In this document: in pieces, positions 7,721 through 31,714 of the stretch
How the letters are laid out: every line of letters begins with the position of its first letter
Position numbering within the stretch: position 1 is the first letter of the stretch
From: an uncultured Fibrobacteria bacterium
GTDB taxonomy: Bacteria; Fibrobacterota; Fibrobacteria; UBA11236
Assembly (NCBI GenBank): GCA_963716395.1
Contig: OY970309.1
Coordinates: 2,281,365 to 2,345,364 of the forward strand
Reading direction: 5' to 3'
DNA: 64,000 bases
Position numbers and translations under genes: made by a program
Notes under the pieces: generated by a model
What the model saw: only the letters and a program-made list of their open reading frames with translations
Told to the model about the DNA's origin: nothing
The model's database searches: none

Positions 7721-7723
7721 GCG

Positions 7724-9614: not shown

Positions 9615-9748
9615 GACGCGAAGAATATAACTCGCGGAATCCCCGCCTTTCCAAGGCCGCCCCGAAGGCAAAAGCCCGTTTTTTCGGTGTTTGAGGGGCT
9701 GTAGGCGGTAACCGGCGCGGAATTCCGCCTGCGGGAATGTGCGCCGCG

Positions 9749-12700: not shown

Positions 12701-15700
12701 GATTTGATGCGGCGCGAGGGAAGCCATGGCCGTGGTTTGCCATTTGACGAAACCGCCCGATCCCGCAGCCGTGGATTGCGCCCAGGATTCGGCGGCCGCA
12801 GCGCCGGTGTCGAGCGGCAAGGTCGCCAGCACGGCCAAGCCCCGCGTCGCGGTGGTGAGATATCCGAAGCCGTTATCGCTGCCGCCGTTGCCGTAAGCTG
12901 CCGTGGCGTTGTTTACCGTGGTGGTATAGGCCACCGTATCCATCGCCACGGTGCCGGCATAGAGGTTGCGCAATTGCGACTCGACGTAGATGTGGCCCGA
13001 AGGCAGAATGGTGTAATAGACGTCGAGGTCCATACTGGCCGTCACCGCCAGCCGCTGCCACACATACGCGTAAGCCCGGTTTTTGGCCAGGAGTATAGGG
13101 GTGATGGTGTTGGAGGTTTGTGCCGAGGCCTTGTAGCTGCCGATTTGCACGTCGAAGAGCAGCGAATTTGCGGCCAGCAAATTGGTGGTGGTGTCGCCGC
13201 CGTCGTACAAGGCGTCGATGCCGCCGCCACGCGCCTTGTCGAATACGATTTTCCAGTCGGCGTTGCGCACCGTGACCGTGCTCGCGGTGGTCGACGTGAT
13301 GAGGGTGTCGAAGTTGCCGCTGGTGGTATTGCCGTATCCCGTGCCTTCGTAAACCCCGATGTCGGGCGCCGCGCCCGTCGGGCGCGCATCGCCGTACAGA
13401 TCGTGCGAGGTGGTGACGCTGTACCCGCCGCTGACCAGACTCGCGGTGCCGGCGTCGATGGCCGGCGACGTCGGCAGCAGTTTGCCGAAGTTGTAATCGC
13501 CCAAAGTGGTGGAAGCCAGCAGGGGATCTTTGATGATTTTGTTGGCATCGGTTTCGCCCGCCACTTCGTCGCCCGTGGTCACCTGCCAGAACAGATTGTT
13601 GGAGACGAGCCCGATGTCGCTGGAATACACGTTGCGGATTCCGTAATTGAAGTTGTAGAAGATGTTATTGGTGACGGTGCTGCTGGTATAAGTCGCGTTG
13701 CCGTCATAATGAAAACCTTCGGTGGCGCCGCCCGATCCGAAGAACAGGTTGTTGACGAAGTTCTGGTTGCGGCCGTTGTAGACGCTGATTCCGTAGCTTG
13801 TGGGTTGGTAGCACAAATTGTTGGCGACCAGAATGTTCTGATTGGTGGAGCTGGGAATGTGGATGCAGGTTTGGTGTTTGGTGCTCCCATTGTTGAATAT
13901 CCGGCAACCATCGACGGTGATGCCCGTGCCGTTATAGCGGATATAAATTCCGTCATAACCGTTGGTGCCCGCCTTGATGTCCAGGTTGCGCAACACAATG
14001 TTCGAGTTGGCGGCTACGGTGTAGTAATAGGTGCTGGAATTCTCGCTCACGCTGCCCGAGCCGTTAAGAGTGGGGCGGGTTTGCCCGTCGAAAGCCTGGA
14101 TGATGGTGGGCTTGGCGTTGATGGTGAAGGAATTGTCGGTGTAGGTGCCCGGCAGTACGCGTACCACCACGGTATCGTTGGCCGTGCAATTGCTCACGGC
14201 GCTGCTGATGGTGAGTTTGGGCGTGGCGGGATTCGCGGCCGTGGCGCAGGAGTTGGCGTCGGAACCGATGGCCGAGTCGACATACACGGTGTCGGCGCCG
14301 TACAGGTTCTGGAAAATGTTGGCGGTGTCGGAGGACGAAGAGTTGATGGGCGACCATTTGCCGGCCGTGTTGTGGATGGCCAGCCCGAAGTAATAGGTGT
14401 TGGGATAGGTGGCCGGAACCAAATATGTGGTGTCGGTGGTGGAAATCGCCTTGCGCGTCACCAAGGTTCCCACGCCCGCGCTGTCGGGGAAATAGGTGTT
14501 GCTGTACGCCGTCGAGGTCGCTTGGTATTTGACCCAGATGCCGATCGAGTCGGCGTTGGTCGAGTCGGTGATGCTCGCACCCCAACTGCATTGAATGCCC
14601 CCAACGGCGGCATTGCAGGTCAGCACGGCGTTGTTGTCGGGGCCGGGTCGGCTGTTCCAGAACACGTTACCCGTGGCGCGCTGGGTTTGATAGCTCAATT
14701 TGATCCAGTTAGAGTCGCGCACGGTGTTGGCGATGGCGACTTCGTCGAACTTCCCCTGGTAATACGCGTCGGCGCTCCAATTTGAATGACCCAAGAAATT
14801 GCTCGTGCGGGTGATCACATTGGGTGGCAAGGCTGAAGTTCCGCTTTGGATCAAGGAACCGTTCTTGTACATCTTGATAGCAGTTCCATTGAAGGTGACC
14901 GCGAAATGGGCCCAAACTCCCGTGGCGAGCGCGCTGGTCGCGTTGACAGCTATCCCGTCGCTCGAGCCATTGTAGACGTCCGCGCTCCAAGTAGTGCCGG
15001 TGCTATTGCGCCCCGACCAAAGGTTATCCGAATGCGTTCCATTGCCGAAGTCAAATAGCCGCGCGTAAGATCCGGTACTCGCCCAATAGGCCCAGCCGGT
15101 GTAAGTGAAGCCGTTGGACCAATCCGCAAACCCGGAGGGAGCGCTGAGGTATTTACTCACACCGTCCAAGCTATCGCAACCGGCGATGATGCCGCCGGTA
15201 TATTCGCTGCCGGTGTAATTGTTGGTGGTCAAACTCAGGCTGTTGGCCGTGGCATCAGGGCGCGACCCGGTGCCGCTGGTATTCAAATGCCAATCGGCTA
15301 CGTACCCATTCGCGGTGGAGAACACGCAGGTGCCGCATTGGCCGTCAGGCACGGTGACGCCCGAGGCCTGTTGGTAATACAAGGTGATGAAATCATGATC
15401 GCTGTTGCCGTCGATCTGGGGAACGAGTACCCATACTTCGGCGCTGTCGGGCGATGTGCTCCATCTTTCGATTTGGTAGTTCAGCCAAGTTTTGCCATCG
15501 CCGTCGAGAAAGCGAATATCCGGGGCGTTGGTCTGCACCGCCGCGGTGATGCCGCCTCCGGTGATGCGCACCAGCAAAGGGAAATTGGTCACGTTGCTGA
15601 GGACATTGGCGCCGGTTTTGGTGGTGTTGAAAATGAATTTCTTGGTGTGCTGAAAATCCGATGGGCTGGGGTTGAACAAGGGCGTGGCGTCGGTGCGCTG

Positions 15701-18700
15701 ATTCTGGTAGGCGAGTTTGATCCAGTTGGAATCGCGCACCACGTTGGACACTTCGATCTCGTCGATAACCCCGTCCCAATACCGGGAGTCGGTCGCGTCG
15801 CCGACGCGTCCGACCTGCATCACCGTGGGCGTTTTCGAGGTAAAAGCCACGCCGGATATGGTGGATGAAGCCACCATGGCCCCGTTGACGTACAGCTTGG
15901 CGGAACCGGTTCGGTCCCAGGTGGCCGCGACATGGGCCCAAGCCCCCGCCGTAGCCGTCCCTCCCGTCAAGTTTCCGGTAACGCCGTCGGTCCCATCCTG
16001 GTAACTCAGATTATAGCCCGTGCCATTGATGCCGAGATTACATTCGAGTGCATCGGTACCGTTGATACCGAGCCCGTTATAGGTTGTCGCCGTAGTCCCA
16101 TTCGATTCGTACATGGTCACCATCGTGCGAACCTGATCGGGCTTCACCCAATGCGAAATGGTGCCGGTAGTCTTGGGCCATTGCAAGGTGTGGGTGAAGT
16201 TGTCCGCTTGCGTTGCGCTTGCGTCTCCGGCAGTGCCCCCCTGGAAATCGAGGCCGCGACCAATGACTCCCGCTACGGTATGGTTGCTGGTGTTGTCGTT
16301 CGTAGTGTTGTTCTTGTAGGTGCCGTTCTGCGCAGCGACCACTTCGGAAACGGTGGCGCTTGCGGCCGTATCGTTCATATGCCACACGCCCGTGAACCCA
16401 TTCGCGGTACTGAACACGCAGGTGGCGCATTGGCCGTCAGGCGCGGTGACGCCAGACGCCTGCTGGTAATACATAGTGATGTAACTGCTGGTGCTGTTGC
16501 CCGCGATTTTGGGAACGAGCACCCAAATCTCGGCCGAATCCGTCGCCGTGGTTTTCCAGCGTTCGATTTGATAGGGCAGCCAGGTCACGCCGTCGCTGGC
16601 GAGAAAGCGAATGTCTTGCCCGGCGCTTTGGCAGGCGCCGATGATGGTCGAACCGGTGAGGCGGATCAACACAGGAAAGTTGTACACGTCGCCCGCCACA
16701 TTGGCGCCCGTCGAGGTGGTGTTGAACTTGAAAATTTTGGAATGCTGAAATGAAGCCGTGGTGACGGCTGTGGTCATGAAGGTACTGTTCGGTTTTTGGT
16801 TTTGGTAAGAGAGTTTGATGTAATTCGAGTCGAGGGCAGCGGTGGTATTGCTGAGTCGGACTTCGGAGATTTCGCCGTTGAATTGCCGGCCCGTCTGTCC
16901 CAGGTTTTCGCCGATGTAGAGATCGGCGCTATTCGTATCCACATTGCCGGTGACCGAGATTGCAGAACCGTCTTTGGATCCATCGACAAACAGTCTGACA
17001 TTCGACCCGTCATAGGTGCCGACGACATAATGCCAATTGCCGTCGGCTACGTTCACGGCGGAAGAAGAGGTACCGTACGCGATTCCACCGATGGAGATCG
17101 CGAAATAAGCCGCGTTGGAAGTGTTGTTTCGTTGCAGCCGGTAAGCATTATCGGCTTTGGTGACGATGGCCTGCCAGGTTTTGGTCCAGGCCGGTATCTT
17201 GACCCAGGTCGAAACGGCGATATTGGTGGTGAAGTTGTAATTGCTTTCCTTGGGGATGTCGATGTAATCGGTGCTGCCGTCGAATACGAGAGCCGTTTGC
17301 GTGGTGAGCCCCGCAATATTGGCCATGTTCTTGAAATAGGTGCCGTTATTGGCCAAGGCCGTGGCGTCATAGGCCTTGTCCTTGGTTCCCTCCAGATGAT
17401 AGACCGACTTGTAATTCTTCCACAGCGAATCGGGCCGCTCCTGCGGGTTGCCCGAGCAGGCGGCGCAGCCGTAATACAATTTGATGTAATCGGTCGATGA
17501 ATTGCCGTCGACTTGCGGTACCTTGACCCAGACTTTTCCGTTCTGGTTGGCTTTGTCCCATTGCACGACTTCGTGGTACAGGCGCGTACCGTCGGGGTCG
17601 ACGAAGAGAATATCTTTGGCGTCGTCGCGCACCTTGGTGAAATCGAAGTTGGAACTGGAAAGCGTCACCAGAATGGGAATGTTGGTGACATTGGCGGAAA
17701 CGTTGGCGCCGCTGGAAGTCGTATTGAAATTCAGAATAACCGAATTGGTGTAGTCGCCGCTGGCATAGCCCACGGTCACGGCTGTTGCTCCTCGCACCTG
17801 GGTTTGGTAACAGAGCTTGACCCAATCCGCGGAGCGCACCGTGGTGCTGATGCTGATTTCGTCGAGGCCGCCGTTCCAATAATTGCTGCTTAGGAATTCG
17901 CCGATGTTCAGATTTCCCGTGCCCTTGTAAACGGCGCCGGCGGTGCGGCTGTTGTTATAAACTCCGTTATAATAAAGCGTTTGCAGCTTGGAGGAACTGT
18001 TAAATGTTGCGGTCCAGTATTGCCAAACTCCCGTATTGGTGTTGGTTGCCGAAGAGTTTAAATCGTCGTTCCATAAACCCAATGTGAAATAGTCGGTATT
18101 GCGATAACCGAATTGCAGCCCGCTGTCGTTGACGCCGCCCCCTTGGCCGATGAGGAAGTTGAGGGATCCCGTGGCCGCACGGTTGACCCAACCGCTGAGG
18201 GTGAAGCTGCCGTTGGCGATATTCACATTGGCTGTGGCCGAAGGCGCGGTCAAATATTGCGTCGAGCCGTTGAAGGTTTGGCCTTGGGCGATGTCTGACC
18301 CGACCTGGGTTCCGCTGGTCATGGCCGTGCCCGTGGCCGGGCTGCGACCCACGGCATCGGCATAACCAGCGGTAGTGGTGTTGCCGACCTCGTTCAAATG
18401 CCAGTCGGCGATGAACCCGTTGTTGCTGTTGAATACCGCCTGCCCGCTGCTTAAACTCGTGGCGGTGTTTTTGCCCCAATACATGTTGAAATATTGGCTG
18501 TTGTTGTTCGCATAGACCGTATCCACCAGCACCCAGATTTCCGCCGAGTCGGCGGTATTGCTCCAGCGTTCAATCTGGTACGGCATCAAGGTTCCGTCGG
18601 CTTTGGCGAAGCGAAGGTCGCCGCCGTTGGCCTGGGCCTGCGCAAAATTGAAGTTCGAGGCGTTCAGCCGCACCAGTAGGGGAAAGCCGGTGACATTGGT

Positions 18701-19246
18701 GGTGGTATTGGCGCCCGTCGCCGTGGTGTTCACATACACCTTGGTCGTGTAGGACCAGGTCGATAACGCGGTGTTGGGGTACGAAACCGCGACTTCGCCG
18801 CTGGGCTTCTGGGTTTGATAATCGAGCTTGATTTGATCTGCACTGAGCGCGCTGTGAATGAAGCGCACTTCATCCAAAACGCCGTTGAAGAAGTAACTGG
18901 TCGGCAAAGGCGACCAGAAGGTGAGCGCATCGTATCCCGCCCGCCAGTAACCGCTGAAGTTCTGAGCCGTGGTCGTGGTGGGATCGCTGGCGACTTGCGC
19001 GCCGTCCACGAACAGCATTTCGCCGGAGCCGGAAAGCTGTGCCACCACAAAATGCCAGGCGCCATCGTTGTAGGCGGATGTGGAACTGATGATTTTATTG
19101 CCTACTCGGAGCGACGCCGAAGTTGAGCTTGCCGGTATTGTCCATCCAAACCATGCGGTCGTAATTGGCGCTGGCCCCGGTTTTCGCATCTCCGAAACCC
19201 AAAATTTTTCCGCCGGAGGTAGGTGCTGGTTTTGAACCAGGCTCAA
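9749..19246 (-). CDS. Giant secreted surface/adhesin-like protein, distal part (3165 aa). Domains: DUF2341 modules, LamG/concanavalin-like lectin domains, a parallel beta-helix (pectate-lyase-fold) region and a C-terminal T9SS-type sorting domain.
   Basis: DUF2341 modules repeat the pattern N(F/I)P(L/V)L(V/I)R(L/I)...D(I/L)RF...DG...YQIERW...AEIWVLVP...GNS...YYQ. LamG-like modules carry ...NWHYVVGTYDGSNVRLFVDGS...LDEVR(L/F)S. The beta-helix repeats include NNLFFGSGG, NNIFYNF and SNNLFWQ. The C-terminus FPNPFNPVT...IYDFSGRVVKTL...GPYFYRFIAGKFVATKKMILLK matches the Por_Secre_tail consensus. The annotated start is TTG, and the protein begins mid-LamG domain (see findings). Confidence 0.8.
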   Translation of the reverse strand: MSLVQNQHLPPAEKFWVSEMRKPGPAPITTAWFGWTIPASSTSASLRVGNKIISSTSAYNDGAWHFVVAQLSGSGEMLFVDGAQVASDPTTTTAQNFSGYWRAGYDALTFWSPLPTSYFFNGVLDEVRFIHSALSADQIKLDYQTQKPSGEVAVSYPNTALSTWSYTTKVYVNTTATGANTTTNVTGFPLLVRLNASNFNFAQAQANGGDLRFAKADGTLMPYQIERWSNTADSAEIWVLVDTVYANNNSQYFNMYWGKNTATSLSSGQAVFNSNNGFIADWHLNEVGNTTTAGYADAVGRSPATGTAMTSGTQVGSDIAQGQTFNGSTQYLTAPSATANVNIANGSFTLSGWVNRAATGSLNFLIGQGGGVNDSGLQFGYRNTDYFTLGLWNDDLNSSATNTNTGVWQYWTATFNSSSKLQTLYYNGVYNNSRTAGAVYKGTGNLNIGEFLSSNYWNGGLDEISISTTVRSADWVKLCYQTQVRGATAVTVGYASGDYTNSVILNFNTTSSGANVSANVTNIPILVTLSSSNFDFTKVRDDAKDILFVDPDGTRLYHEVVQWDKANQNGKVWVKVPQVDGNSSTDYIKLYYGCAACSGNPQERPDSLWKNYKSVYHLEGTKDKAYDATALANNGTYFKNMANIAGLTTQTALVFDGSTDYIDIPKESNYNFTTNIAVSTWVKIPAWTKTWQAIVTKADNAYRLQRNNTSNAAYFAISIGGIAYGTSSSAVNVADGNWHYVVGTYDGSNVRLFVDGSKDGSAISVTGNVDTNSADLYIGENLGQTGRQFNGEISEVRLSNTTAALDSNYIKLSYQNQKPNSTFMTTAVTTASFQHSKIFKFNTTSTGANVAGDVYNFPVLIRLTGSTIIGACQSAGQDIRFLASDGVTWLPYQIERWKTTATDSAEIWVLVPKIAGNSTSSYITMYYQQASGVTAPDGQCATCVFSTANGFTGVWHMNDTAASATVSEVVAAQNGTYKNNTTNDNTSNHTVAGVIGRGLDFQGGTAGDASATQADNFTHTLQWPKTTGTISHWVKPDQVRTMVTMYESNGTTATTYNGLGINGTDALECNLGINGTGYNLSYQDGTDGVTGNLTGGTATAGAWAHVAATWDRTGSAKLYVNGAMVASSTISGVAFTSKTPTVMQVGRVGDATDSRYWDGVIDEIEVSNVVRDSNWIKLAYQNQRTDATPLFNPSPSDFQHTKKFIFNTTKTGANVLSNVTNFPLLVRITGGGITAAVQTNAPDIRFLDGDGKTWLNYQIERWSTSPDSAEVWVLVPQIDGNSDHDFITLYYQQASGVTVPDGQCGTCVFSTANGYVADWHLNTSGTGSRPDATANSLSLTTNNYTGSEYTGGIIAGCDSLDGVSKYLSAPSGFADWSNGFTYTGWAYWASTGSYARLFDFGNGTHSDNLWSGRNSTGTTWSADVYNGSSDGIAVNATSALATGVWAHFAVTFNGTAIKMYKNGSLIQSGTSALPPNVITRTSNFLGHSNWSADAYYQGKFDEVAIANTVRDSNWIKLSYQTQRATGNVFWNSRPGPDNNAVLTCNAAVGGIQCSWGASITDSTNADSIGIWVKYQATSTAYSNTYFPDSAGVGTLVTRKAISTTDTTYLVPATYPNTYYFGLAIHNTAGKWSPINSSSSDTANIFQNLYGADTVYVDSAIGSDANSCATAANPATPKLTISSAVSNCTANDTVVVRVLPGTYTDNSFTINAKPTIIQAFDGQTRPTLNGSGSVSENSSTYYYTVAANSNIVLRNLDIKAGTNGYDGIYIRYNGTGITVDGCRIFNNGSTKHQTCIHIPSSTNQNILVANNLCYQPTSYGISVYNGRNQNFVNNLFFGSGGATEGFHYDGNATYTSSTVTNNIFYNFNYGIRNVYSSDIGLVSNNLFWQVTTGDEVAGETDANKIIKDPLLASTTLGDYNFGKLLPTSPAIDAGTASLVSGGYSVTTSHDLYGDARPTGAAPDIGVYEGTGYGNTTSGNFDTLITSTTASTVTVRNADWKIVFDKARGGGIDALYDGGDTTTNLLAANSLLFDVQIGSYKASAQTSNTITPILLAKNRAYAYVWQRLAVTASMDLDVYYTILPSGHIYVESQLRNLYAGTVAMDTVAYTTTVNNATAAYGNGGSDNGFGYLTTATRGLAVLATLPLDTGAAAAESWAQSTAAGSGGFVKWQTTAMASLAPHQIRTQSFLLYLGDKTPTYAKTASLYTEATAALPLHVYTGANWGERSWQDALYGHWPLDDASGTTVRDKAVYFQHNGALTGGTWTTGKWAGGLSLATTDVVSVNGNADSLDGYQDWSLCFWVDPDFTNMGNTAYFIDKGTSTANGYFVRKVSGQNQVTFNMGSGSVTVALNNNAWNYVIFTVTSGGQIYGYVNGIRVAAGTSIAAPVANSSNLHFGENAGSGSVDRFKGVLDDIRIYKRELSPEEIQSLYRRGFDPLDGLNRVRADNNNRVDLVLNDSAPQVHVQPMFYIDNWFAGRTPNYVYLNGTRLRPLVDFVSDTILQAVSSFGSKLVLQLNKTITTSQANLFIDDDDSTGYLGASSLMPALVTTYDAADHWLKVRNFPDTVFGAAGSNQWELIIDLNGSTTTNDGDGGIFSWKSSEISPYLALSQATDLTGPGQYTLDLMRYDNNSTTKYTSGNDYSSPNPLTYTILDSSSTRLKVKINAASLNVASPNLTLERTFTIYPTGKLFISHKWTSLSADATGTEVVLTGLANEDSNESVLGYTAATGKAGRLGGNTNLYFHSLGLSMLSVKPGSGSVVMNGSTVSSTDNSTAKTALLLNGYYTKTNVSAGGVYTNYMVDIARNYSDSASLDSALSSPQVSSQLMTAITGSLVTGDALDFNGDGFAEGEGAFVYQAASSGIAHFRFDATTPRVKPAFKITGWTFGGIPNYVIVNNQTQVPGYQYNATLDNTNSDVVLQFNHTFSGGIQDIYISHANGLAVTMNLLYTAADTGGHSGLNWVTQSEYDNLGYNVWRRTLPRPDTLTGALCDSLPIPMELSFTEDSLKSLGYVRLNTDLLPGAPDGRSSATRAYAYLDPLSQYGPSYYEYLLEAVDFQGNAAFYGPVKAAPADNLQTALYGNFPNPFNPVTFIRFALKDETPVSLIIYDFSGRVVKTLIRPDNPLKPGRYSLTWDATTNRGQLAASGPYFYRFIAGKFVATKKMILLK

Positions 19247-22200
19247 ATGGTGAAGGTATTGGGGTTGGAAAACTGAGTGGTGGTGGAGACGTATTTCGAA
19301 CTGCCGTCGAGTTTGTACCCATAGCTGATATCGGCGCTGACACTGTCGCCGGTGACGCCGCCCTGGGCCGTGCCGTTATTGCCGTTGCCCGAGGCGTCGG
19401 TGAATTGCGGCGCGGTGCCGCCGGGGCTTTGCTGCAAGTGGTACACGCCGACATAGGAACCGAACACGCTCGCGTCGCTGCTTTGGCTGGACGCGCTCGG
19501 CCGGCCCCAATACATCTTGATGTAATCCGTATTGGAGTTGGCGTCGACCTGCGGCACCTTCACCCACAGCCAGGCTTTTTTATTCGTGTAATCCCATTTC
19601 TCAATCGAATAGGAAAGTACGGTGCCGTCGGGATCGGTGAAGCGAATGTCGGATCCGTCGGTTTTGGCTTGCGAGAAAATGAAGTTGTTCGAGTCGAGTC
19701 GCACCAGCATGGGATAGTTGGTGATGTTGGTTGAGGTGTTGGCGCCGGTCGAGGTGGTGTTGAAATTGATGGCGGTCGAATAGGCCCAGGCCGAATAATC
19801 GAAAGTCCAATTCGTGTTAGCGCCGCCGTTGGTGCTGTTATCCGCCGCGCCTGTGGAACCTCCCCCGGCATTGCTGCCCGCGATGTTGGCGTAGTTGGCG
19901 CTCAAGGCTCCGGCTACGGTCAGCGTCCAGGCCGTGGCGTTCATGTCCAAGAGATTTCCGCTTTGACCCGTGAAGCTGGCGTTGCCGGCTACCGTAAGGG
20001 TTCTGCCGTTCAAGTTGGAAAAGCTGGTGGTCGCGCCGTTGGTCACCGTGAAGTTGCCGGAACTGGTCGTGCTGATGTTCTGCCCGTTGAAATTCAAAAT
20101 ACCCGCGCTTTGCGTGAACGAAAGGCAGGTCAGCGCGTTGGTGGAAAGTTGCAGGGTGCCGGCTCCGGTGTGGGAAATATTGGGATGCGTGGCGCCCGAG
20201 TTGGGGGTGAAAGTTTGTGTCCCCGAGCCCGCAGTGAAGGCCAAGGTTCCTGTTCCCACCGTTAAGGTGCCCAGGTTGGAGAGGTCGGCGTTCCCCGAAG
20301 TAACCTGCACGGTACTGGAACCGAAATCCATGGTTCCGGCGGCGGTAGAAATGGATGTGACGGAATGCGTGAATCCGCTACCCCATTGCCAGGTGCCCGA
20401 GGTCAAGGTAAAGGCGCCGGCGGTTAGCGCGTTGGTGGCCACGGCCACGGTTCCCGAAGACCCGGATTTGGTGATGGCGGGAAAGGTGGCCCCGGATTTG
20501 GGCGTGAAGGTTTGCGTGCCGGAATTGCCGGTGAAGGCGAGCGTGCCCGTACCGGCCGTCACGGTTTGACCGGAAACAAAAGTGGCGTTGCCCGTATTGA
20601 TGGTCAAGGTGTAAGACCCGAAATTAAACGTGCCGGTGTACCCGGTAAAATCAATGGAAGCCGCGGCTTGGCTGGCCGACATCGTGGCGTTGGCATTGGC
20701 ATTGGAGCCGCTGCCGTTGAAGGAAAGGTTGAGACCCGTGGAGGAAATGGCCGTGCCGCCCTGGAACTCGTCGAACACAGCCACGCCCGTGAGTCCGGAA
20801 TTGTGGGAGCAGAGCAACAGGCCGATTTGAGAATTGGCATTGGTGCTCACCACGGTTTGCGTCGTGTTTTGCTGGGTCCAGGTGCTGGCCAACGAGGTTC
20901 GGTAGTAGGCGCTCACCGAAGATCCGCTTTTGACCAGACGCAGCCAGACCGGGAGGGTCACCGCCGAGCCGCTGATGCCGATGGACGCCAATTGGCCCGC
21001 CGTGGTGGTGCTCGCCTCGAATTCGAGTTTCAAATCGCCGCGCACGGCGATCCCCGCATAGCCGCCCGAATTATTCGCCGTCCCCGGTCCCAGGACCGTG
21101 AAGTCATTCGCCATGTAGATGCCCGCCTTGGCGGCGGTGTTTGTGTTGTAAACCGAATCGACCCGTACCGTCACATCGAAATCGCCCGTGATATCCGCGC
21201 GGCGCAAGGCCGTGAATTCGTTCGTGGTCTGCCAAAGTTCCGAGCCGCGCCCCTGGATAGTCAGACGCCCGTACTTCGTGGTTTGGTCGCACGTGCCCGT
21301 GCCCGCATTGTTGTCCGCGTCCTGGCAGGTCCATGAGCCGCCGAGGGTGGTGGACGAGAAATCGTCGTCGGTGGTGGAGGCGGGTCGGCGGCCCGTACCG
21401 TCAGCGTTACCCGTCCAGTTATACGCCTTACTGAAATCGGTACTGGAAGTCAGCACATCGTTGCGATTCCAATAATAGGTGTTGCCTTGGGTGGAACCAT
21501 ATAAGACGGGAGTGGCTCCCGCCACTTGGGTTTGATAATTGAGTTTGGCCCAGTCGGCGCTTCGAGAAGAGGAGGAAATTTGCACTTCATCGAGGGAACC
21601 GTTGAATATTTCGGTTGTGTTGGCCGCGCTTGGGATGCCGAAACGCAGGTAGGTGGTGTTATTGTTCACCGTCTGGGTCACGCTGGTATTGGCAGTTCCC
21701 GCCGAAGTCCCGTTAATGTATAGGGTCTGAGTCCCTCCGGAATAGGTTCCCATGATGTATACCCAGGTACCGGCCGAATATGCGCCGCTCTTTTGCCAAT
21801 CCTTTGCGTTGCTCTCGCTACCCACGCGATACCACATCGAACCATCCGAACGTGCTTTGAATGTCCAACCAACGCCGCTGGCATCGTTGGGATTTTTGTC
21901 GACGATTTCCTGGTTCGCCAAGCTCGTCGCCTTCATCCAGAACGAAACGGTTTGCGAACTGGCCGAACCCGGCCAAGGTCCGAAGCCCAGGTAACTGGCT
22001 GAGCCGTCGAAGGCGGTGCCGTTTCCGATCACTCCAGCCACCTGCCCTGCTCCTGCATTCGTCATACCCCCCGCCGCCGAATCATTGTAAATACCGGTTG
22101 CGTCTCGGTAATTGCCGACGGAATTGCTGCCGGTCTCGCCTAAATGCCAAACCCCAATGAAACTGTTTGAAGTCGAAAACACCGAAGAAGCGCTGGAGGC

Positions 22201-22680
22201 ATCGCTTTGTCCGCTTTTGCCCCAGTAAATACGGATGTCCGTGGTTGAGTTTCCCGCAACGCTGGGCACCAGCACCCAAATATCCGCCGAGGTGGAGTTG
22301 GTCCAATCCTCGATTTGATAAGACAAGGCCGTGGACCCGTCGGAACTGGAAAAGCGCACGTCGGCGCCGCCGGAAAGCGCCCCGCTCAAAATGTCGCTGG
22401 CGAAGAAGTTGGTGAGGCGGATTAACACCGGATAATTCGTCTGGGTAGTCGAAACGTTGGCGCCGCCGCCGGTGTTGGTCGTATTAACGGTGAGCGTCTT
22501 GTATTTTGCCCAAGTGTCATAGGGACCGGCTTGGGCGATGGCGGCGATCCACAACACACTCGCGCCAAGCCAAATCCAGGAGCGGCTGGGTAGTCGCAAT
22601 GTCTTCACGCCTCGAAGATGGCTTCGAGCCCGGGGGAAAAGTTCTTCCCAGCCCTTGGCGATATTATTCCTCAAATGCAT
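19243..22680 (-). CDS. Giant surface protein, proximal part (1145 aa). It has an N-terminal signal region, two DUF2341 modules, LamG-like domains and a Thr/Ser/Gly-rich beta-strand repeat region, and ends inside a LamG domain.
   Basis: Hydrophobic N-terminal segment (WIWLGASVLWIAAIAQA). DUF2341 modules are at NYPVLIRL...DVRF...YQIEDW...IWVLVP and NYPMLVRL...DIRF...YSIEKW. The C-terminus ...YKLDGSSKYVSTTTQFSNPNTFTI stops where a LamG domain has just begun. The stop TGA 19245..19243 overlaps the TTG start of the next ORF. Confidence 0.8.
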   Translation of the reverse strand: MHLRNNIAKGWEELFPRARSHLRGVKTLRLPSRSWIWLGASVLWIAAIAQAGPYDTWAKYKTLTVNTTNTGGGANVSTTQTNYPVLIRLTNFFASDILSGALSGGADVRFSSSDGSTALSYQIEDWTNSTSADIWVLVPSVAGNSTTDIRIYWGKSGQSDASSASSVFSTSNSFIGVWHLGETGSNSVGNYRDATGIYNDSAAGGMTNAGAGQVAGVIGNGTAFDGSASYLGFGPWPGSASSQTVSFWMKATSLANQEIVDKNPNDASGVGWTFKARSDGSMWYRVGSESNAKDWQKSGAYSAGTWVYIMGTYSGGTQTLYINGTSAGTANTSVTQTVNNNTTYLRFGIPSAANTTEIFNGSLDEVQISSSSRSADWAKLNYQTQVAGATPVLYGSTQGNTYYWNRNDVLTSSTDFSKAYNWTGNADGTGRRPASTTDDDFSSTTLGGSWTCQDADNNAGTGTCDQTTKYGRLTIQGRGSELWQTTNEFTALRRADITGDFDVTVRVDSVYNTNTAAKAGIYMANDFTVLGPGTANNSGGYAGIAVRGDLKLEFEASTTTAGQLASIGISGSAVTLPVWLRLVKSGSSVSAYYRTSLASTWTQQNTTQTVVSTNANSQIGLLLCSHNSGLTGVAVFDEFQGGTAISSTGLNLSFNGSGSNANANATMSASQAAASIDFTGYTGTFNFGSYTLTINTGNATFVSGQTVTAGTGTLAFTGNSGTQTFTPKSGATFPAITKSGSSGTVAVATNALTAGAFTLTSGTWQWGSGFTHSVTSISTAAGTMDFGSSTVQVTSGNADLSNLGTLTVGTGTLAFTAGSGTQTFTPNSGATHPNISHTGAGTLQLSTNALTCLSFTQSAGILNFNGQNISTTSSGNFTVTNGATTSFSNLNGRTLTVAGNASFTGQSGNLLDMNATAWTLTVAGALSANYANIAGSNAGGGSTGAADNSTNGGANTNWTFDYSAWAYSTAINFNTTSTGANTSTNITNYPMLVRLDSNNFIFSQAKTDGSDIRFTDPDGTVLSYSIEKWDYTNKKAWLWVKVPQVDANSNTDYIKMYWGRPSASSQSSDASVFGSYVGVYHLQQSPGGTAPQFTDASGNGNNGTAQGGVTGDSVSADISYGYKLDGSSKYVSTTTQFSNPNTFTI

Positions 22681-22920
22681 TTCGCCTCGACCGGCGACAT
22701 GCCGGCGTGGACTCCTGATTATGGCCTAATTGTAAAGGATGGGGCTTGCCGCTCCTCCCGTTCGCGAAGCGGCGTTTGAGGTTTTTTAAAACCGGGACTT
22801 GCGAATTGACTCAATCATTTCACAATGGTCAGGTTAAATCCGCATCACTTTTCTCACCGTAAACCCGCCGAGAAATCCCTGGGAAAAGGCCGTGGGCGAA
22901 GGTGCTACATTCCCGGCGTG

Positions 22921-24129
22921 ATGCGCACACCGCTGGCGGAAAAGCCCTCAGCCCTCGCTTGGCAATTGTATGTCCACGTTCCTTTTTGCGAACGCAAATG
23001 CCATTACTGCGATTTCGCCAGTTGGGAATCGCCGGGCGTGACACAACGGGCCTGGGTAGAAACCGTGTTGCGCGAACTCGATCATGCCGCCGCGCGGCGG
23101 CCTGAGTTGCGCCTCGACACGGTTTTTTTCGGCGGCGGCACGCCGTCGGTGCTGCCCGTCGCCTCGCTCGCGCGCATCGTGGCGCGCATGCGGGAACGGT
23201 TCGATTGTTCCGGTATCGCGGAAATGACTTTGGAAGCCAATCCCAGCAGTTTGACACAGGAGAAATTGCGCGCCTGGCGCGGACTGGGTTTTGATCGCGT
23301 CAGCATCGGCGTGCAGAGTTTCGACGCCGAAGAGCTGCGCTTGCTGGGCCGCGTGCACTCGCCTGAAGGCGCCGAGGCGGCCTTGGAAGCCCTGGCGGCG
23401 GAGAGTGGATTGCGCTTCAGCGCCGACCTGATTTTCGGCTTGCCGGGTCAAACCCGGGAAGGCTTCTTGAACAACCTCGAAAAACTCTTGCGTTACCATC
23501 CCGGTCACGTTTCCTTCTATGGCCTCACGGTGGAAGACGGCACCGAGTTCGCGCGCCGACAGGCCGCCGGCAGGCTGGTTTTGCCCGAGGCAGAGGCCTA
23601 CGGCGCCATGTACCGCTCGGGCGTGGAACGTCTGCGGCAGTCGGGGTGGCGGCGTTACGAAGTTTCGAATTTCGCGCGACCCGGCCAGGAATGCCGGCAC
23701 AACCAAGGCTATTGGCGCGGTGCGCCGTTTCTTGCCCTGGGTCCGGGGGCGCATGGTTTCGACGGTACGCGGCGCTGGATGAATCCCCGCGAGTTGGACG
23801 ACTATTTGCGCTGGGGCGAAGCTGGTTTTTCCGAGGAATCGGTGACGTGGGATGTACTCGACGCCGATGCCGGTCTCAGCGAAGCCGTCTCTTTGGGGTT
23901 GCGACAGGCGCGCGGGTTTGATTCTGAAGCGGTGGGTACGGCGTTCGGGGTGCATTGGCCCGAGTCGGCCTGGGTCAAATGGGAACGGGCCGGATGCCTG
24001 GAACGCGTTGCGGGCTTTGCCCGTCTAGGCGACGAGGGATGGCTTTTGCTCGACGAAATTTGTGCCGATCTTTTAGCAAAAGCCAGGCCGGTAAAGTCGC
24101 TTACCCATGCTGTAGCCATGCCGGTTTGA
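22921..24129 (+). CDS. hemW: Radical SAM heme chaperone HemW (HemN-like, oxygen-independent coproporphyrinogen oxidase family)
   Basis: Radical-SAM CxxxCxxC (CERKCHYCDF) and HemN/HemW family length and motifs. The likely start is the internal ATG at 22921 (MRTPLAEK...); the ORF-track start at 22825 adds a basic, unlikely extension. Confidence 0.85.
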   Translation: MRTPLAEKPSALAWQLYVHVPFCERKCHYCDFASWESPGVTQRAWVETVLRELDHAAARRPELRLDTVFFGGGTPSVLPVASLARIVARMRERFDCSGIAEMTLEANPSSLTQEKLRAWRGLGFDRVSIGVQSFDAEELRLLGRVHSPEGAEAALEALAAESGLRFSADLIFGLPGQTREGFLNNLEKLLRYHPGHVSFYGLTVEDGTEFARRQAAGRLVLPEAEAYGAMYRSGVERLRQSGWRRYEVSNFARPGQECRHNQGYWRGAPFLALGPGAHGFDGTRRWMNPRELDDYLRWGEAGFSEESVTWDVLDADAGLSEAVSLGLRQARGFDSEAVGTAFGVHWPESAWVKWERAGCLERVAGFARLGDEGWLLLDEICADLLAKARPVKSLTHAVAMPV

Positions 24130-24156
24130 CAGGCTTTTGCCCGGTTGCTTTGCCGG

Positions 24157-24181
24157 TTTACCCAGCGGGTAAAGTTTTATT
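24157..24181 (+). terminator. Putative intrinsic terminator after hemW
   Basis: Stem TTTACCC / GGGTAAA with loop AGC, followed by GTTTTATT. It sits 28 nt after the hemW stop. Confidence 0.4.
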
Positions 24182-24273
24182 CCAGGCGCAGTTTATACAA
24201 ATAATCAGCGTAAAAGTACATATCACATATTCCCATAACCTCTACACTCTAAAAACTAGCGAGGAGGAGTTTT

Positions 24274-26058
24274 ATGCACCGAAGCAAATGGATTTTGTCA
24301 TGCGTTTTGAGCATGGCTTGGTGCGCTTCCAGTTGGGCCGTCGATCTGGGCACTTATAAAGGCTGTGACGCTACCGATGCGCAATTCGTAACCACCCGAA
24401 TTTACCAAGGGCCTTATCAGGCCATCGGTCAAAGCAATACGCAGAATTCGGTGTTGAAGGTGGCCTTCGATGCCAATGCCAATAATTTCGCCGATGTTTA
24501 TTTCATCTTGAAGGCTGGAACCGTCGCGCGCTACAATGCCGCGACCAGCACCATCGACACCCTCGGCCATCTCAGCGTCGATACCTTTGGGGAACATGGT
24601 TTGATCGGCATCGCCTTGGATCCCAATTTCAAAACCAATCGTTACATGTATTTCGACTATATGGTCATTGGATCCGGCAATACTTATGTCTTCCGTATCT
24701 CCCGGTTTACCTTGGGAGCGGGAACCACCGGTAAACTCGACATGTCCTCCGAAAAAATCCTGCTTACTATTCCCCGTCACGATAATTCCGATAACGGTTG
24801 GCACACGGCCGGCGATATGAGCTTCGACGCCTACGGCGATCTCTGGTGCGCCATCGGCGACAACGAGAACACCGAGCTTTCCGCGGGCAATACCGCCGAT
24901 TTGCGCGGAGGGATTCTGCGCATCCATCCCGACTCCTCGGCGCGGGGCTTCAGCATTCCCAAGGGAAATTTCGGCGAAACCTTTGCCAGCTACTTTACTT
25001 CGCAGGGTAACGCCACCGTGGCGGCCCAGTATCAGGACACGACCAAGGTGCGTGCGGAGATCTACGTGAAAGGTACCCGCAACGCTTACACCATGGCCTT
25101 GGATCCCGTGCGACGTTGGGTATCATGGGGAGAGGTGGGGCCGGATCAGGGCAAGGTTGCCGAGGAATACAACATGGTGCGCTCCCCTGTTTATGGCGGA
25201 TGGCCTTATTTCGCCGGACAGGAAAACATGGGCGCCGGTTCTTCCACCGGCGGACCATCCGGCGGACCCTATGGAATACCCGTGCCGCTTCAGTCCGATC
25301 CGAACAACATCATGAACAAAAATACCGGCATTAACGGCGTGGTAAACCTGCCGCCCAACCACAACCCCATTTTTGCGAAGACGCAAGCTTGCGCCATGGG
25401 CGGGCCGATTTTCGTCTATAACGGCAGCAACACACGGAAAACCCAATTCCCGCCGCAATTCAACCATAAATGGCTGATTGGGGATTGCGAAGGTAATTAC
25501 GGCTATCGGCTTCTGACCTTCGATTCGGCGGGCGATACCATCACTTCGGCGGCGGACAATCTTAAAATTTTCGCCGGGAGCAATGTTCCCCAAACCAATA
25601 CCTTGGTCGATATGAAGCAAGGCCCGGATGGCTCGCTGTATATCGTCGACTGGGGTAACAGCGCCATTTACCGCGTGGACTATAACGGAACCTGCCAGGA
25701 TTCCACGCTGCTGGCGGATAAAACCGGTTGCGCCGATCCGACGGCATCGAATTACAATCCCAGCATTCCTACGGCTTACAACGATCCCAGGCTTTGCACT
25801 TATGGCGACATTGCCATAACCGGAAAGGTTTTTCACTACAACCCGGTGCAATTGTCGGGAAATATGTTGACGGTATCCCTGACGGGCGGGTATGGAATTC
25901 AAATCTCGGACGTTTCCGGACGCCTGGTTTTCGCCATGAGCGGCGAAGGCAACAAGACCTATCAAATTCCGGCTTTCGCACATTCCGGTATTTACCAACT
26001 GCAAGTCAAAGGCGTGGCCGGCACTTTTACCCAACGGTATTTGAATCTGACGCCTTAG
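24274..26058 (+). CDS. Secreted PQQ-dependent soluble sugar (glucose/sorbosone) dehydrogenase-like beta-propeller with a T9SS-type C-terminal sorting domain
   Basis: Signal peptide. GSDH-family motifs HGLIGIALDPNF, GGILRI and RNAYTMALDP. C-terminal GIYQLQVKGVAGTFTQRYLNLTP beta-sandwich tail. GAGGAGGAG Shine-Dalgarno 4-12 nt upstream. Confidence 0.75.
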   Translation: MHRSKWILSCVLSMAWCASSWAVDLGTYKGCDATDAQFVTTRIYQGPYQAIGQSNTQNSVLKVAFDANANNFADVYFILKAGTVARYNAATSTIDTLGHLSVDTFGEHGLIGIALDPNFKTNRYMYFDYMVIGSGNTYVFRISRFTLGAGTTGKLDMSSEKILLTIPRHDNSDNGWHTAGDMSFDAYGDLWCAIGDNENTELSAGNTADLRGGILRIHPDSSARGFSIPKGNFGETFASYFTSQGNATVAAQYQDTTKVRAEIYVKGTRNAYTMALDPVRRWVSWGEVGPDQGKVAEEYNMVRSPVYGGWPYFAGQENMGAGSSTGGPSGGPYGIPVPLQSDPNNIMNKNTGINGVVNLPPNHNPIFAKTQACAMGGPIFVYNGSNTRKTQFPPQFNHKWLIGDCEGNYGYRLLTFDSAGDTITSAADNLKIFAGSNVPQTNTLVDMKQGPDGSLYIVDWGNSAIYRVDYNGTCQDSTLLADKTGCADPTASNYNPSIPTAYNDPRLCTYGDIAITGKVFHYNPVQLSGNMLTVSLTGGYGIQISDVSGRLVFAMSGEGNKTYQIPAFAHSGIYQLQVKGVAGTFTQRYLNLTP

Positions 26059-26069
26059 TCTGACAGGCG

Positions 26070-26089
26070 GGGGGTGCCAAACGCACCCC
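26070..26089 (+). terminator. GC-rich hairpin (GGGGTGC-CAAAC-GCACCCC), 12 nt after the 24274..26058 stop. Possible terminator, but it lacks a U-tract.
   Basis: Perfect 7-bp inverted repeat with a 5-nt loop, seen directly in the sequence. The downstream TCTCATC is only weakly T-rich. Confidence 0.25.
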
Positions 26090-26473
26090 TCTCATCTACA
26101 GCGCACTTCCTCATCCCTCAATCCCCGCCTTGGAATCCTCGGGTCGTCGTGCCTGCGAATTCTGAGCCCGACCATTCAGTTCTCGGTTACTGAACCATAG
26201 GCGGATTCAGATCGGCCCCGGATCTTCAAATCTTAGGAAGTGGGTTTGAGATCCCGCGACAGACTCGGGAACCAGGTCCCAAGTCCCAAGTCTGGGGAGC
26301 AAAATCGCGATTACTCAATGTCGCCGGAGCGTAGTCCTAATCTTAATCTGAAGGCGACGCGGAAAAAGCCTTCACCTGCAAATCCGTTTGCGGCGCGAGT
26401 TGGCGGCCAAAACTCGCGACGTGAACATCCGCTCCGTTGGTCAGGACAAATGCGGACCCAGGTCCACTCAGAA

Positions 26474-27529
26474 TTACGGTACGATGAATTTCGTCGCGTG
26501 AAACCCGTCGCTTGCCCGCACGGTGACCATATATACGCCACTCGGTTGGCCCTTAAACGGGAATTGACCTTGCCTTGTGACCGTGGCCGCGATCGCCCCG
26601 CCCTTGGTATTTCGAACCAAGACCCGGGTATTTTCCCCCACTCCGCGGAGTCGTACGATTCCTGACAGGTAAGTCGCTGAAATGGGGTCACGGGCTGCGT
26701 TCAGCTTCAGGAGACGGACCTCGGTAGGATTGTTCAACGAGAACTGTTTGAAAAAGGCCCACACCTCGTTGGATTGGTTCAGCCGGTTCGCGGCGGGCCA
26801 TTGATGCCCCTCGCCCTGGATGGAATCGGCCACCACGTAGCTTCCCTGGGCGCAGGGCCCATAGCTGATACGTGTGACCCCGGAATTCGGATTGGTGGCC
26901 GGATAGGGGCGGGTGATGGTCGGTGTGGAGGGACAGCTATCCAGATTCGTCCAAATGTCGAGGTCGGCGATGAAGGTGGGCGGAGCCGTGATGTCATTGG
27001 TTCCGAAGGTCATAAACATTGGCACCGGACGCGTGAGGGTACAGGTCGTGTTGGAGTGGCCGGATACCGGCGCCACCGCGGCGAAAACATCGGAGTAATT
27101 GCACCCGGCTACGAAACTGATGATCCCGCCCTGGGAAAATCCCGTCATATAGACGCGGTTGCGATCGATATGGTACCGGGCGTCCAGCGTGTCGATAATC
27201 GCCAGGAAAAAGGGGAAGTTGGTGGTGCCATACATATCGTTCCAGGTTCCAGTGCTTCCATCGCTGGATGCACTGGGATAGGCCGCAATGAATTTGTCCT
27301 GGTCGGCGGTAGCATCCCCTTTGGTATCGTTTTCAAATTCGGCACCGCTTCCGTTGGCGCCGTGGATAAACAACACCAGGGGAGGTTTGTTGATGCCGCT
27401 GGGCACATGCACGACACAACTATGGGTCTGACCGGAAAGCTGAAAACTCAGTGTCGTCGTGGTCTGTGCGAATCCGGAGGCCGCCAGCGACGCAAATATT
27501 CCTACCGCCAAAAGCCGAAAATGAGCCAT
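26474..27529 (-). CDS. Secreted alpha/beta-hydrolase esterase (PHB-depolymerase / feruloyl-esterase-like) with a T9SS-type C-terminal sorting domain
   Basis: Signal peptide MAHFRLLAVGIFASLAASGFA. Nucleophile elbow GFSQGG (G-x-S-x-G). Por_Secre_tail-like C-terminus ...SGVYMVTVRASDGFHATKFIVP. AAGGAG Shine-Dalgarno upstream. Confidence 0.7.
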   Translation of the reverse strand: MAHFRLLAVGIFASLAASGFAQTTTTLSFQLSGQTHSCVVHVPSGINKPPLVLFIHGANGSGAEFENDTKGDATADQDKFIAAYPSASSDGSTGTWNDMYGTTNFPFFLAIIDTLDARYHIDRNRVYMTGFSQGGIISFVAGCNYSDVFAAVAPVSGHSNTTCTLTRPVPMFMTFGTNDITAPPTFIADLDIWTNLDSCPSTPTITRPYPATNPNSGVTRISYGPCAQGSYVVADSIQGEGHQWPAANRLNQSNEVWAFFKQFSLNNPTEVRLLKLNAARDPISATYLSGIVRLRGVGENTRVLVRNTKGGAIAATVTRQGQFPFKGQPSGVYMVTVRASDGFHATKFIVP

Positions 27530-27610
27530 GGGATCTCCTTTTTCGGGAATATAATGTCCATTCCGCCCTTCGCCCCGGGACTATTTGGAACCTGACACGC
27601 TTTTCTGATT

Positions 27611-27722
27611 CGGATATTTCGACCGGTTCGACAAGCTCACCGGTCTACCCCCCCGGCTGGTTCGACAAACTCACCAGCCGTACTCCCTTGTCCGGTAAGC
27701 TTGTCGAACCGCCGGAGGGCAT
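27611..27722. repeat. Cluster of TTCGAC-containing direct and inverted ~20-bp repeats in the intergenic/promoter region
   Basis: Direct copies CCGGTTCGACAAGCTCACCGG (27623..27643) and CTGGTTCGACAAACTCACCAG (27657..27677). Inverted copy CCGGTAAGCTTGTCGAACCGCCGG (27692..27715). Additional TTCGACC/ATCGACC half-sites at 27617 and 27721. Confidence 0.4.
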
Positions 27723-27754
27723 CGACCGCGGATTGAGACGGAGTTAAACGGCAA

Positions 27755-28090
27755 TTAGACCCTGAGCACACCGCGGAAACCCCGGGCCGCATAGTACGAC
27801 TCCGCGCCGTTATGGTAGGTGAAAAACGAATCGTAGCGGCGATCACAAAAGATGGCGCCGCCGCGCTGACGGATGGCGGAAGGCGTTTTCACCCAGCTGG
27901 AGCTTTTGGCGTCAAAGTTTCCGAGTTTCTGCAGCTCGCGATACCGGGCTTCGGTCAAGAGTTCGATACCCAGGGCGGCGGCCATACCGACCGCGCTGGC
28001 TACAGGTTTGAATTCTTTTCTCGCCTCCAACGCTTCGGGGTCATAACAAAGGCTTCTGCGGCCCTTGGGGGCTTTCCGCCGAACAATCAT
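27755..28090 (-). CDS. Small conserved hypothetical protein (111 aa). Possibly an N-terminally truncated member of a family of about 190 aa (tentatively DUF4256-like).
   Basis: ATG start with a GAAGGAA Shine-Dalgarno. Conserved-looking C-terminal block ELQKLGNFDAKSSSWVKTP...GGAIFCDRRY...YHNGAESYYAARGFRG. The family assignment is from memory and is not verified. Confidence 0.4.
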   Translation of the reverse strand: MIVRRKAPKGRRSLCYDPEALEARKEFKPVASAVGMAAALGIELLTEARYRELQKLGNFDAKSSSWVKTPSAIRQRGGAIFCDRRYDSFFTYHNGAESYYAARGFRGVLRV

Positions 28091-28310
28091 AAAACAGAAA
28101 TTCCTTCATCTTTTTATGGCCTTTGTGGTTGGTTCTACCCGCGAATGCCTCCATGCCCTCATCTCCAATCAATTGCCAAGACGGAAACGGCTCCCATGCC
28201 CGGCTTGCCCCTTTGTTTTTACGACAATAATGGATCCGCCGCCGTTACAGTCTCGAAGGAAAGAATGTCTACTTCTTAAGCCGAGGGGCTTCAAGTGTGA
28301 GGGGGGAATC

Positions 28311-29534: not shown

Positions 29535-29659
29535 AACCGGCAGGATTTTTTCCTGGCGGCGGAAGGGCTTGGTCCCATTCCGCCTTGGCCTTGCAAGCGG
29601 CATCGGCAAAACGCCGCGCCAGCATTTCTATTTGTGAATCAAATGGTATCTTGGCTGCC

Positions 29660-31621: not shown

Positions 31622-31714
31622 CTTGGTCCGCTCACAACTTGGTTGCCGTAATCTTGGTGCCGTTTTCACCAAGGAGTCGAAGATGTCCCACCAAATATCC
31701 GCAAGCTTGGCTAT

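Follow-up and report, generated by a model that had tools for sequence, protein, structure and literature searches.

The window analyzed here is a 64,000-nt stretch of DNA from an uncultured Fibrobacteria bacterium. On its minus strand, the ORF list contains a 1145-aa ORF (nucleotides 19243..22680; frame A), a 3165-aa ORF that begins at a TTG codon (9749..19246; frame C), and a 119-aa ORF in the third frame (19095..19454; frame B). The stop codon of the first ORF and the TTG of the second overlap as TTGA at 19243..19246, as the preliminary description of this DNA had noted. The 1145-aa ORF encodes a signal-peptide-like segment, a DUF2341+LamG unit, Thr/Gly-rich repeats, a second DUF2341 domain and the first third of another LamG module. 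In a Pfam search its DUF2341 match covered two stretches and reached 105.5 bits over the protein as a whole, and its Laminin_G_3 score was 67 bits. The N-terminal leader (MHLRNN...SWIWLGASVLWIAAIAQA/GPYD; 22528..22680, minus strand) appears signal-peptide-like when the translation is read by eye, and a similar hydrophobic leader is found in orthologs. Frame C encodes the remainder of the split LamG module, four more DUF2341+LamG units, one more LamG domain, a beta-helix region and a T9SS type A sorting domain (Por_Secre_tail; 9761..10009, minus strand). The sorting domain comprises the last ~85 residues of the 3165-aa ORF, is present only at its far 3′ end, and scored 32.3 bits on NCBIfam TIGR04183 (cutoff 23) and 27.9 bits on Pfam FlgD_ig. 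A second, smaller T9SS cargo-like gene is situated nearby at 28311..29534.

Translation of all frames of the minus strand revealed that a single LamG module passes through three reading frames at the junction between the two large ORFs. Frame A ends as ...NPNTFTI-TGA-AWFKTST, the terminus of the 1145-aa ORF being ...YKLDGSSKYVSTTTQFSNPNTFTI*. Comparison of the translation with orthologs indicated that the in-frame TGA (19243..19245), the first of three lesions, interrupts the LamG strand motif FTI-*-AWFKT. The sequence that follows it in frame A, AWFKTST (19222..19242), fits the [ACGLV]W[FLI]KT[TSI][TS] pattern of the orthologs. The second lesion is one extra base at approximately position 19221 (the minus-strand T in CACC-T-ACC), which shifts frame A to frame B; its position was set by 10 of 11 orthologs in a frameshift-aware alignment, and WFKTSTTSGGK was regained once this base was deleted. 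Frame B then encodes the middle of the module, TSGGKILGFGDAKTGASANYDRMVWMDNTGKLNFGVAPS (19104..19220), as judged from the translation, the reconstruction and the orthologs. The third lesion, also one extra base, shifts frame B to frame C somewhere within the 19 nt of 19097..19115; individual orthologs placed it at 19097, 19100, 19103 or 19115, and deletion of base 19103 restored the frame. Frame C picks the module up again at GNKIISSTSAYNDGAWHF and continues for ~3,117 codons (9749..19102) without any other stop. Removal of the two bases and replacement of the TGA produced a single 4,309-codon ORF. All three lesions are contained within 148 nt of this 12,930-nt gene, and the other ~4,260 codons are free of lesions.

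These results refine what the preliminary description had said of the junction. Its statement that the two large ORFs are one gene of ~4,300 aa agrees with the repaired length, and its split LamG module is where it was said to be, although the module is broken by a stop codon and two 1-nt insertions rather than by a single frameshift. The 3165-aa ORF starts with 48 out-of-frame residues instead of the ~29 unrelated residues that had been counted, and the string TAWFGWTIPASS, taken for LamG sequence, results from reading DRMVWMDNTGKLNFG in the wrong frame. The third-frame ORF, described as having LamG-like residues, does have them but was understated, since the module's true middle lies in it (19220..19104). 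An A5T5 homopolymer had been placed at 19201..19210. The run is AAAATTTTT at 19201..19209, which is A4T5 on the plus strand, and frame B is correct on both sides of it (GGKILGFG), which rules it out as the place of a shift.

Profile searches provided further evidence that the module is continuous. Using a repeat-unit profile made from the protein's own DUF2341+LamG units, we found that positions 2–171 matched the end of the 1145-aa ORF, in accord with the earlier claim that this ORF ends in the first third of a LamG module, while positions 223–315 matched the 3165-aa ORF from residue 54. Thus, ~51 profile positions remain for ~52 intervening codons. As in the other repeat units, a DUF2341 domain (PF10102) adjoins the junction LamG on its upstream side (residues 1008–1074 of the 1145-aa ORF). 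The three-frame reconstruction scored 75.3 bits on Pfam Laminin_G_3 (PF13385; cutoff 27.6) and covered the entire profile (1–151 of 151). Direct joining of the two ORFs gave 48.9 bits; the 3165-aa ORF alone covered only positions 60–151, and the end of the 1145-aa ORF alone gave no Laminin_G_3 match. When the profile was made from the protein's internal modules alone, the frame-B segment went unscored, as paralogous units differ in that part of the module; Pfam and the orthologs settled the segment instead. The continuity of the LamG module over the junction is far beyond chance.

We identified 11 orthologous loci, nine in genome_contigs and two in metagenome_contigs, all from other Fibrobacteria and at 53–62% identity. 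The search of these two collections for a copy from the same species returned only these relatives. In the protein database, an exact look-up of the 1145-aa ORF found no record, and family members longer than ~1,100 aa are apparently absent. The module was contained in one unbroken frame in all 11 loci and in the ortholog protein P0001, recorded as 'DUF2341 domain-containing protein, partial [Fibrobacteria bacterium]', with orthologous ORFs of 600–4,216 codons open across it. Frameshift-aware alignment showed that all 11 loci call for identical changes, namely one stop and two 1-nt insertions in the window copy. Eight of the long orthologous ORFs aligned to the repaired ORF in single HSPs of 1,200–3,457 aa that cross the junction, and P0001 aligned across it residue for residue. 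The residue aligned with the TGA is Ser in six and Gly in six of these 12 sequences. The reconstruction kept 57 of 60 highly conserved ortholog columns, including 15 of 16 in the lesion zone (reconstruction positions 66–125, the frame-B segment included).

From these data we consider it near certain that 9749..22680 on the minus strand is one ancestral 4,309-codon gene whose reading frame was broken within one LamG beta-sandwich by three lesions. It is equally near certain that the 119-aa ORF and the TTG 'start' of the 3165-aa ORF are by-products of the lesions and not genes, and that the product of the gene is a giant secreted surface protein. The repaired protein has a putative N-terminal signal peptide, DUF2341+LamG repeats, a beta-helix region and a C-terminal T9SS sorting domain. 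The signal-like leader is found only on the 1145-aa ORF and is joined to the sorting domain on one polypeptide only after all three repairs. Judged from the reading frames as written, neither fragment could serve as T9SS cargo, because the sorting domain is missing from the 5′ piece, and the 3′ piece has neither a signal peptide nor a credible start. We find it scarcely credible that the locus contains two separate genes, one for a secreted 1145-aa protein followed by one for a 3165-aa protein starting at the TTG. The 4-nt overlap of the ORFs (TTGA) is of a kind that is frequent in operons. However, the proposed boundary cuts through a LamG beta-sandwich, residues 1–48 of the 3165-aa ORF are conserved LamG sequence read in the wrong frame, this ORF lacks a signal peptide despite ending in a T9SS sorting domain, and the orthologs are single ORFs over the boundary.

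A conserved split or a programmed frameshift, which the preliminary description had put forward for the case that orthologs were divided at the same boundary, is ruled out since 11 loci and one protein read the module in one frame. For the full-length protein to be made by recoding confined to this copy, ribosomes would have to read through the TGA and shift by +1 twice in 150 nt or, in a variant of the model, shift by +1 once at the TGA and once at the frame-B TAA. Both frame changes are indeed +1, and in principle each shift could be placed at the stop that closes the preceding frame (ATT TGA G and CAA TAA A). Nevertheless, we consider recoding highly improbable. Neither any of the 11 orthologous loci nor P0001 contains an interruption, and the conserved AWFKTST follows the TGA in frame A, so that a +1 shift at the TGA would lose it. 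Moreover, the locus has neither a prfB-like CUU UGA C sequence nor a conserved stimulatory element, and a search of 19090..19260 yielded no hairpin or inverted repeat. TGA is also the ordinary stop codon of the 4,309-codon gene itself. This last finding, together with the Ser or Gly residues of the orthologs at this position, excludes reassignment of TGA and selenocysteine insertion. Repeat screens likewise excluded repeat-induced misassembly, a DGR template and a hairpin, as 16000..19800 contained neither a tandem repeat nor a significant inverted repeat, and none of its k-mers of ≥21 nt was repeated.

To compare the window with another assembly, we used Logan contigs from run ERR11594399, which were reached via a radical SAM gene and a cNMP-binding gene. 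These contigs were 99.96–99.99% identical to the window over 24 kb and are an independent assembly of the population from which the window derives. The sole indel difference in these 24 kb was an extra T in the window at 31112. This insertion splits a histidine kinase gene in the window, whereas Logan contig L014 contains an intact 425-aa HisKA+HATPase_c gene. The window and the Logan contigs also differed by five base substitutions, all of them transitions and two of them synonymous, and in their pattern these look like real strain SNPs. L014 stops 14 nt short of the TGA, at 19259, and the other Logan contig ends at 16540; thus, 16541..19258 was covered by neither of the retrieved contigs. 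Look-ups aimed at lengthening this comparison gave no further contig, and the literature search on the run accession gave no result. No repeats that would explain the Logan break were found within the window. A screen of the window for more frameshifts that combined GC3 with the overlap of open frames was too noisy in this GC-rich DNA. Apparent gene remnants were observed in a low-GC stretch at 40–44 kb, and some real gene decay may thus occur in this genome.

We favor the interpretation, with a probability of roughly 0.55, that a long-read-type metagenome assembly introduced the three lesions as local errors in its consensus. According to this model, the lesions would border a stretch in which the population's reads are thin or in conflict, and the organism itself would carry an intact gene. 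Several findings favor an artifact. First, the lesions are clustered without other decay; the chance that three lesions distributed uniformly over 12,930 nt would all fall within 148 nt is 3(d/L)^2, or ~4e-4. Second, the source contig is 3,754,783 bp in length, which is typical of long-read assembly. Third, the other 1-nt insertion frameshift, in the histidine kinase gene, is absent from the Logan assembly. Fourth, a Logan contig ends so close to the TGA. The retention of the conserved columns, in the lesion zone as elsewhere, leaves no time for decay. Collapsed allelic variants are known to bring indel errors and apparent frameshifts into long-read consensus sequences, and adjacent allelic variants are reported to lead to clustered indel errors in collapsed assemblies (PMC8445201). 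Other features count against an artifact. Residual long-read indel errors usually sit in homopolymers, and both insertions lie outside them. In addition, a generally noisy patch would not be expected to yield a lone nonsense substitution in a module otherwise without visible substitutions. The preliminary description had named indels, through either pseudogenization or homopolymer sequencing errors, as the cause. These were the right options, except that a nonsense codon is also present and the homopolymer is not involved.

The alternative, which we consider a serious possibility although somewhat short of even odds, is that the nonsense codon and both insertions are real in the strain or in a sub-population and reflect very recent inactivation. 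These cells would then have lost the giant T9SS surface protein, while others in the population may keep an intact allele. Giant surface proteins are often lost when phages or predators exert pressure. In support of real lesions, all three stand in the assembled sequence, the insertions have no homopolymer association, and gene remnants are also present elsewhere in the window. Strain variation with respect to Logan is itself real by the transition SNPs, and the Logan break at 19259 is what would be expected from a polymorphic site or tract. Since these SNPs look real, true strain variation could equally account for the indel in the histidine kinase gene and for the lesions at the junction. 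Real lesions would have come from one complex local mutational event or from transfer of a damaged patch. Conversely, independent neutral mutations would not cluster as observed. The ~4,260 codons without other decay and the conserved residues that were kept also argue against inactivation, and the only other frameshift in 24 kb, being absent from the independent assembly, points to the assembly and not to the organism. It is unlikely that real lesions arose in a single localized mutational event and mark a natural Fibrobacteria population as polymorphic for the on or off state of a giant T9SS surface protein.

A gene split most likely by consensus error, or else by very recent inactivation, is ordinary, and the significance of the locus is mainly for annotation. 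The 1145-aa, 119-aa and 3165-aa ORFs are not three proteins and the TTG is not a start; a fitting annotation would be one 4,309-codon gene that is frameshifted or needs correction. The presence of single-base indel discrepancies in the 3.75-Mb contig, with at least one more in the window at 31112, makes truncated ORFs elsewhere in the genome suspect. If the lesions are real, they would show that an uncultured Fibrobacteria lineage has very recently lost a giant T9SS-secreted LamG/DUF2341 surface protein, a modest but usable case of surface-protein loss in a natural population. In that event, peptides spanning FTI-x-AWFKTSTTSGGK and VAPSGNKII would point to recoding.

The closest known relatives of the gene are the giant DUF2341/LamG proteins of Fibrobacteria MAGs (for example, P0001 and the ORFs in L003, L004, L005, L007, L008 and L009), for which we found no experimentally shown function. 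They share the DUF2341+LamG unit and an apparent N-terminal signal peptide with the window gene and are collinear with it at 44–51% identity for as much as 3,457 aa, the junction module and the linker YPNTALSTWSY included. Their N-termini vary, some beginning ~160 codons before the junction module, while others, like the window gene, have 560 to at least 2,000 extra codons there. These orthologs are unbroken, in contrast to the window copy with its stop and two frameshifts. With T9SS type A cargo (TIGR04183/PF18962), the gene shares the C-terminal Por_Secre_tail match and the signal-peptide-like leader but differs in that, as written, leader and sorting domain lie on different ORFs. Its frame changes resemble prfB-type +1 frameshifting in being +1 and drawable beside stop codons, but they lack both conservation in orthologs and the CUU UGA C site, conserved coding sequence follows the stop in the zero frame, and two shifts plus readthrough would be needed. 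As in frameshifts caused by consensus errors, single-base indels split a conserved ORF in the window, although here the indels are not in homopolymers and a nonsense substitution lies alongside them.

The junction separates a 1145-aa ORF (19243..22680, minus strand, ATG start) from a 3165-aa ORF (9749..19246, minus strand, TTG start), the stop codon of the former overlapping the TTG of the latter as TTGA. A 119-aa ORF (19095..19454, minus strand, ATG start) occupies the third frame. Three-frame translation of 18700..19760 revealed that a single LamG module is spread over all three minus-strand frames. Frame A, that of the 1145-aa ORF, reads ...GYKLDGSSKYVSTTTQFSNPNTFTI up to the TGA and continues beyond it with meaningful sequence (AWFKTST); frame B, the 119-aa ORF, encodes TSGGKILGFGDAKTGASANYDRMVWMDNTGKLNFGVAPS, and frame C, the 3165-aa ORF, resumes the module at GNKIISSTSAYNDGAWHFVVAQLSGSGEMLFVDG. 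Because the module passes through three frames, residues 1-48 of the 3165-aa ORF are wrong-frame translation, and 'TAWFGWTIPASS', which the preliminary description had read as LamG, falls within these residues.

Profile searches likewise indicated one module. Against a DUF2341+LamG repeat-unit profile that we built from the same protein, the end of the upstream ORF matched positions 2-171 and the downstream ORF, from residue 54, matched positions 223-315; the profile gap of ~51 positions compares with ~52 codons between the two matches. With Pfam Laminin_G_3, the three-frame reconstruction scored 75.3 bits over the full profile (1-151 of 151) and the two ORFs joined directly scored 48.9 bits, whereas the downstream ORF alone matched only profile positions 60-151 and the upstream ORF end alone gave no match.

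The best database homolog is P0001, annotated as a 'DUF2341 domain-containing protein', partial in sequence and encoded in a Fibrobacteria MAG. It aligns collinearly with 54% identity, and its junction sequence, WFKTITTSGGGIISFSSNQTGILGDRDRALWMDNTGKLSFGTNPGSSNVVTSTSAYNDG, agrees with the reconstruction residue for residue. Pattern scans recovered 11 orthologous loci with 53-62% identity, nine from Fibrobacteria or Fibrobacterota MAGs (L001-L009) and two from metagenome contigs (L012 and L013). The module lies in a single open frame in all nine MAG loci, the frames being 600-4,216 codons long and mostly reaching the edge of the locus. Each ortholog was aligned to 18850..19480 with frameshift awareness, and all 11 gave the identical set of minus-strand lesions: an in-frame stop at 19245..19243, opposite Ser or Gly in the orthologs; an extra base at ~19221, the T in CACC-T-ACC, placed there by 10 of the 11; and a second extra base somewhere in 19097..19115. 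No other length differences were found in this interval. Deletion of 19221 and 19103 together with replacement of the TGA yielded a single 4,309-codon ORF, whose product aligned to eight long orthologous ORFs as single HSPs of 1,200-3,457 aa (44-51% identity) that span the junction. In a 13-sequence alignment including the reconstruction, 57 of the 60 columns conserved in at least 11 of 12 orthologs were retained, as were 15 of the 16 in the lesion zone. The earlier observation of a LamG domain split across the junction is confirmed, the break sharpening to three lesions in three frames, and its reading of the two ORFs as one gene is supported.

Two separate genes at this locus would be extremely improbable, as the interruption occurs in no ortholog. 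The same finding bears on programmed recoding of the giant gene, which we consider just as implausible: a prfB-like site and local structure were both sought at the site and neither was found, and a +1 shift at the TGA would discard the conserved AWFKTST that frame A retains after the stop. Reassignment of TGA was ruled out because the giant gene itself terminates at TGA.

The same population is also represented in an independent assembly of run ERR11594399 from Logan. Two contigs of that assembly are 99.96-99.99% identical to the window: L014 corresponds to 19259..31948 with four mismatches and one indel, and L015 to 5106..16540 with one mismatch. L014 breaks off at position 19259, which is 14 nt upstream of the TGA, and neither contig includes the 2.7-kb stretch 16541..19258 of the giant gene; this interval contains no internal window repeats of at least 21 nt. 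Evidently the reads of this run diverge or thin out exactly at the L014 end. The uncovered stretch suggests a mixture of strains, or few supporting reads, in this part of the gene. The sole indel is an extra T in the window at 31112, in a histidine kinase region (30343..31621, plus strand) adjoining its response regulator (29585..30346). It breaks the kinase within HisKA, leaving a 305-aa ORF (30343..31260, plus strand) and shifting HATPase_c to another frame. Since L014 encodes an intact 425-aa HisKA+HATPase_c kinase (11085..12362) without this T, the window carries a second single-base-insertion frameshift that is not in the independent assembly.

All three lesions fall within a 148-nt span of the 12,930-nt gene, and the remainder is free of them; assuming independent uniform hits, the probability of such clustering, 3(148/12930)^2, is ~4e-4. 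The 13-sequence alignment showed no sign of accumulated substitutions in the reconstruction. The source, a single 3,754,783-bp contig from an uncultured organism, points to long-read assembly, and collapse of nearby allelic variants in long-read consensus sequences is known to produce clustered indel errors and apparent frameshifts (PMC8445201). Together with the Logan comparison, this indirect evidence leans toward an assembly artefact, so that the cause is probably technical, with a probability of roughly 0.55. Genuine inactivation, recent or polymorphic, is somewhat less probable but a serious contender: the insertions lie outside homopolymers and the nonsense codon stands alone as a substitution. 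Moreover, the window and the Logan contigs differ by five substitutions, each of them a transition and two synonymous, which indicates real strain variation; the lesions could therefore also be real, perhaps a polymorphic allele.

No near-identical junction module was found among GTDB species representatives, and as the closest giant-gene orthologs reach only 53-62% identity, that collection may contain no close representative of the organism. Elsewhere in the window, a low-GC stretch (40000..45263; ~0.45 compared with ~0.58 elsewhere) adjoins a minus-strand tRNA-Lys at 45191..45263. Long ORFs are absent from ~1.1 kb of this stretch, and two of its genes look like remnants: a fragment of 79 aa at 41249..41488, judged ankyrin-like by eye, and a DUF347 protein of half length at 42326..42679. 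The stretch may be an integrated island carrying decayed genes. At 51838..62241, a TAT-signal molybdopterin oxidoreductase (minus strand, 54266..56704) is clustered with a multihaem c-type cytochrome (plus strand, 60835..62241), a hint that this Fibrobacteria lineage may respire anaerobically.

Once repaired, the protein begins with what by eye resembles a signal-peptide leader. It contains DUF2341+LamG units, additional LamG domains and a beta-helix region, and at its C-terminus lies a sorting domain of T9SS type A (TIGR04183, 32.3 bits; cutoff 23). It is a predicted giant surface protein of the T9SS cargo type in an uncultured Fibrobacteria lineage. As the leader and sorting domain lie on separate ORFs, neither fragment as written would be handled as cargo under the definition of T9SS cargo. 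A small second protein with a T9SS Por_Secre_tail sorting domain (407 aa; 28311..29534, plus strand) is encoded 9 kb away from the giant gene. The N-terminal architecture of the giant gene varies by species: in L001, L002, L006, L009 and P0001 the protein begins, with a signal peptide, ~160 codons before the junction module, and L003, L004, L005, L007, L008 and the window carry 560 to >2,000 further codons at the N-terminus. Of the sequences examined, only the window has one more DUF2341+LamG unit at the front.

That a stop and frameshifts interrupt the ORF of a multi-domain surface protein is nothing out of the ordinary, be it a pseudogene or an error of assembly; what is gained in practice is the right annotation and caution over indel discrepancies in this contig. 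The gene itself is a new member of a giant DUF2341/LamG repeat family that is widespread in Fibrobacteria MAGs and uncharacterised.
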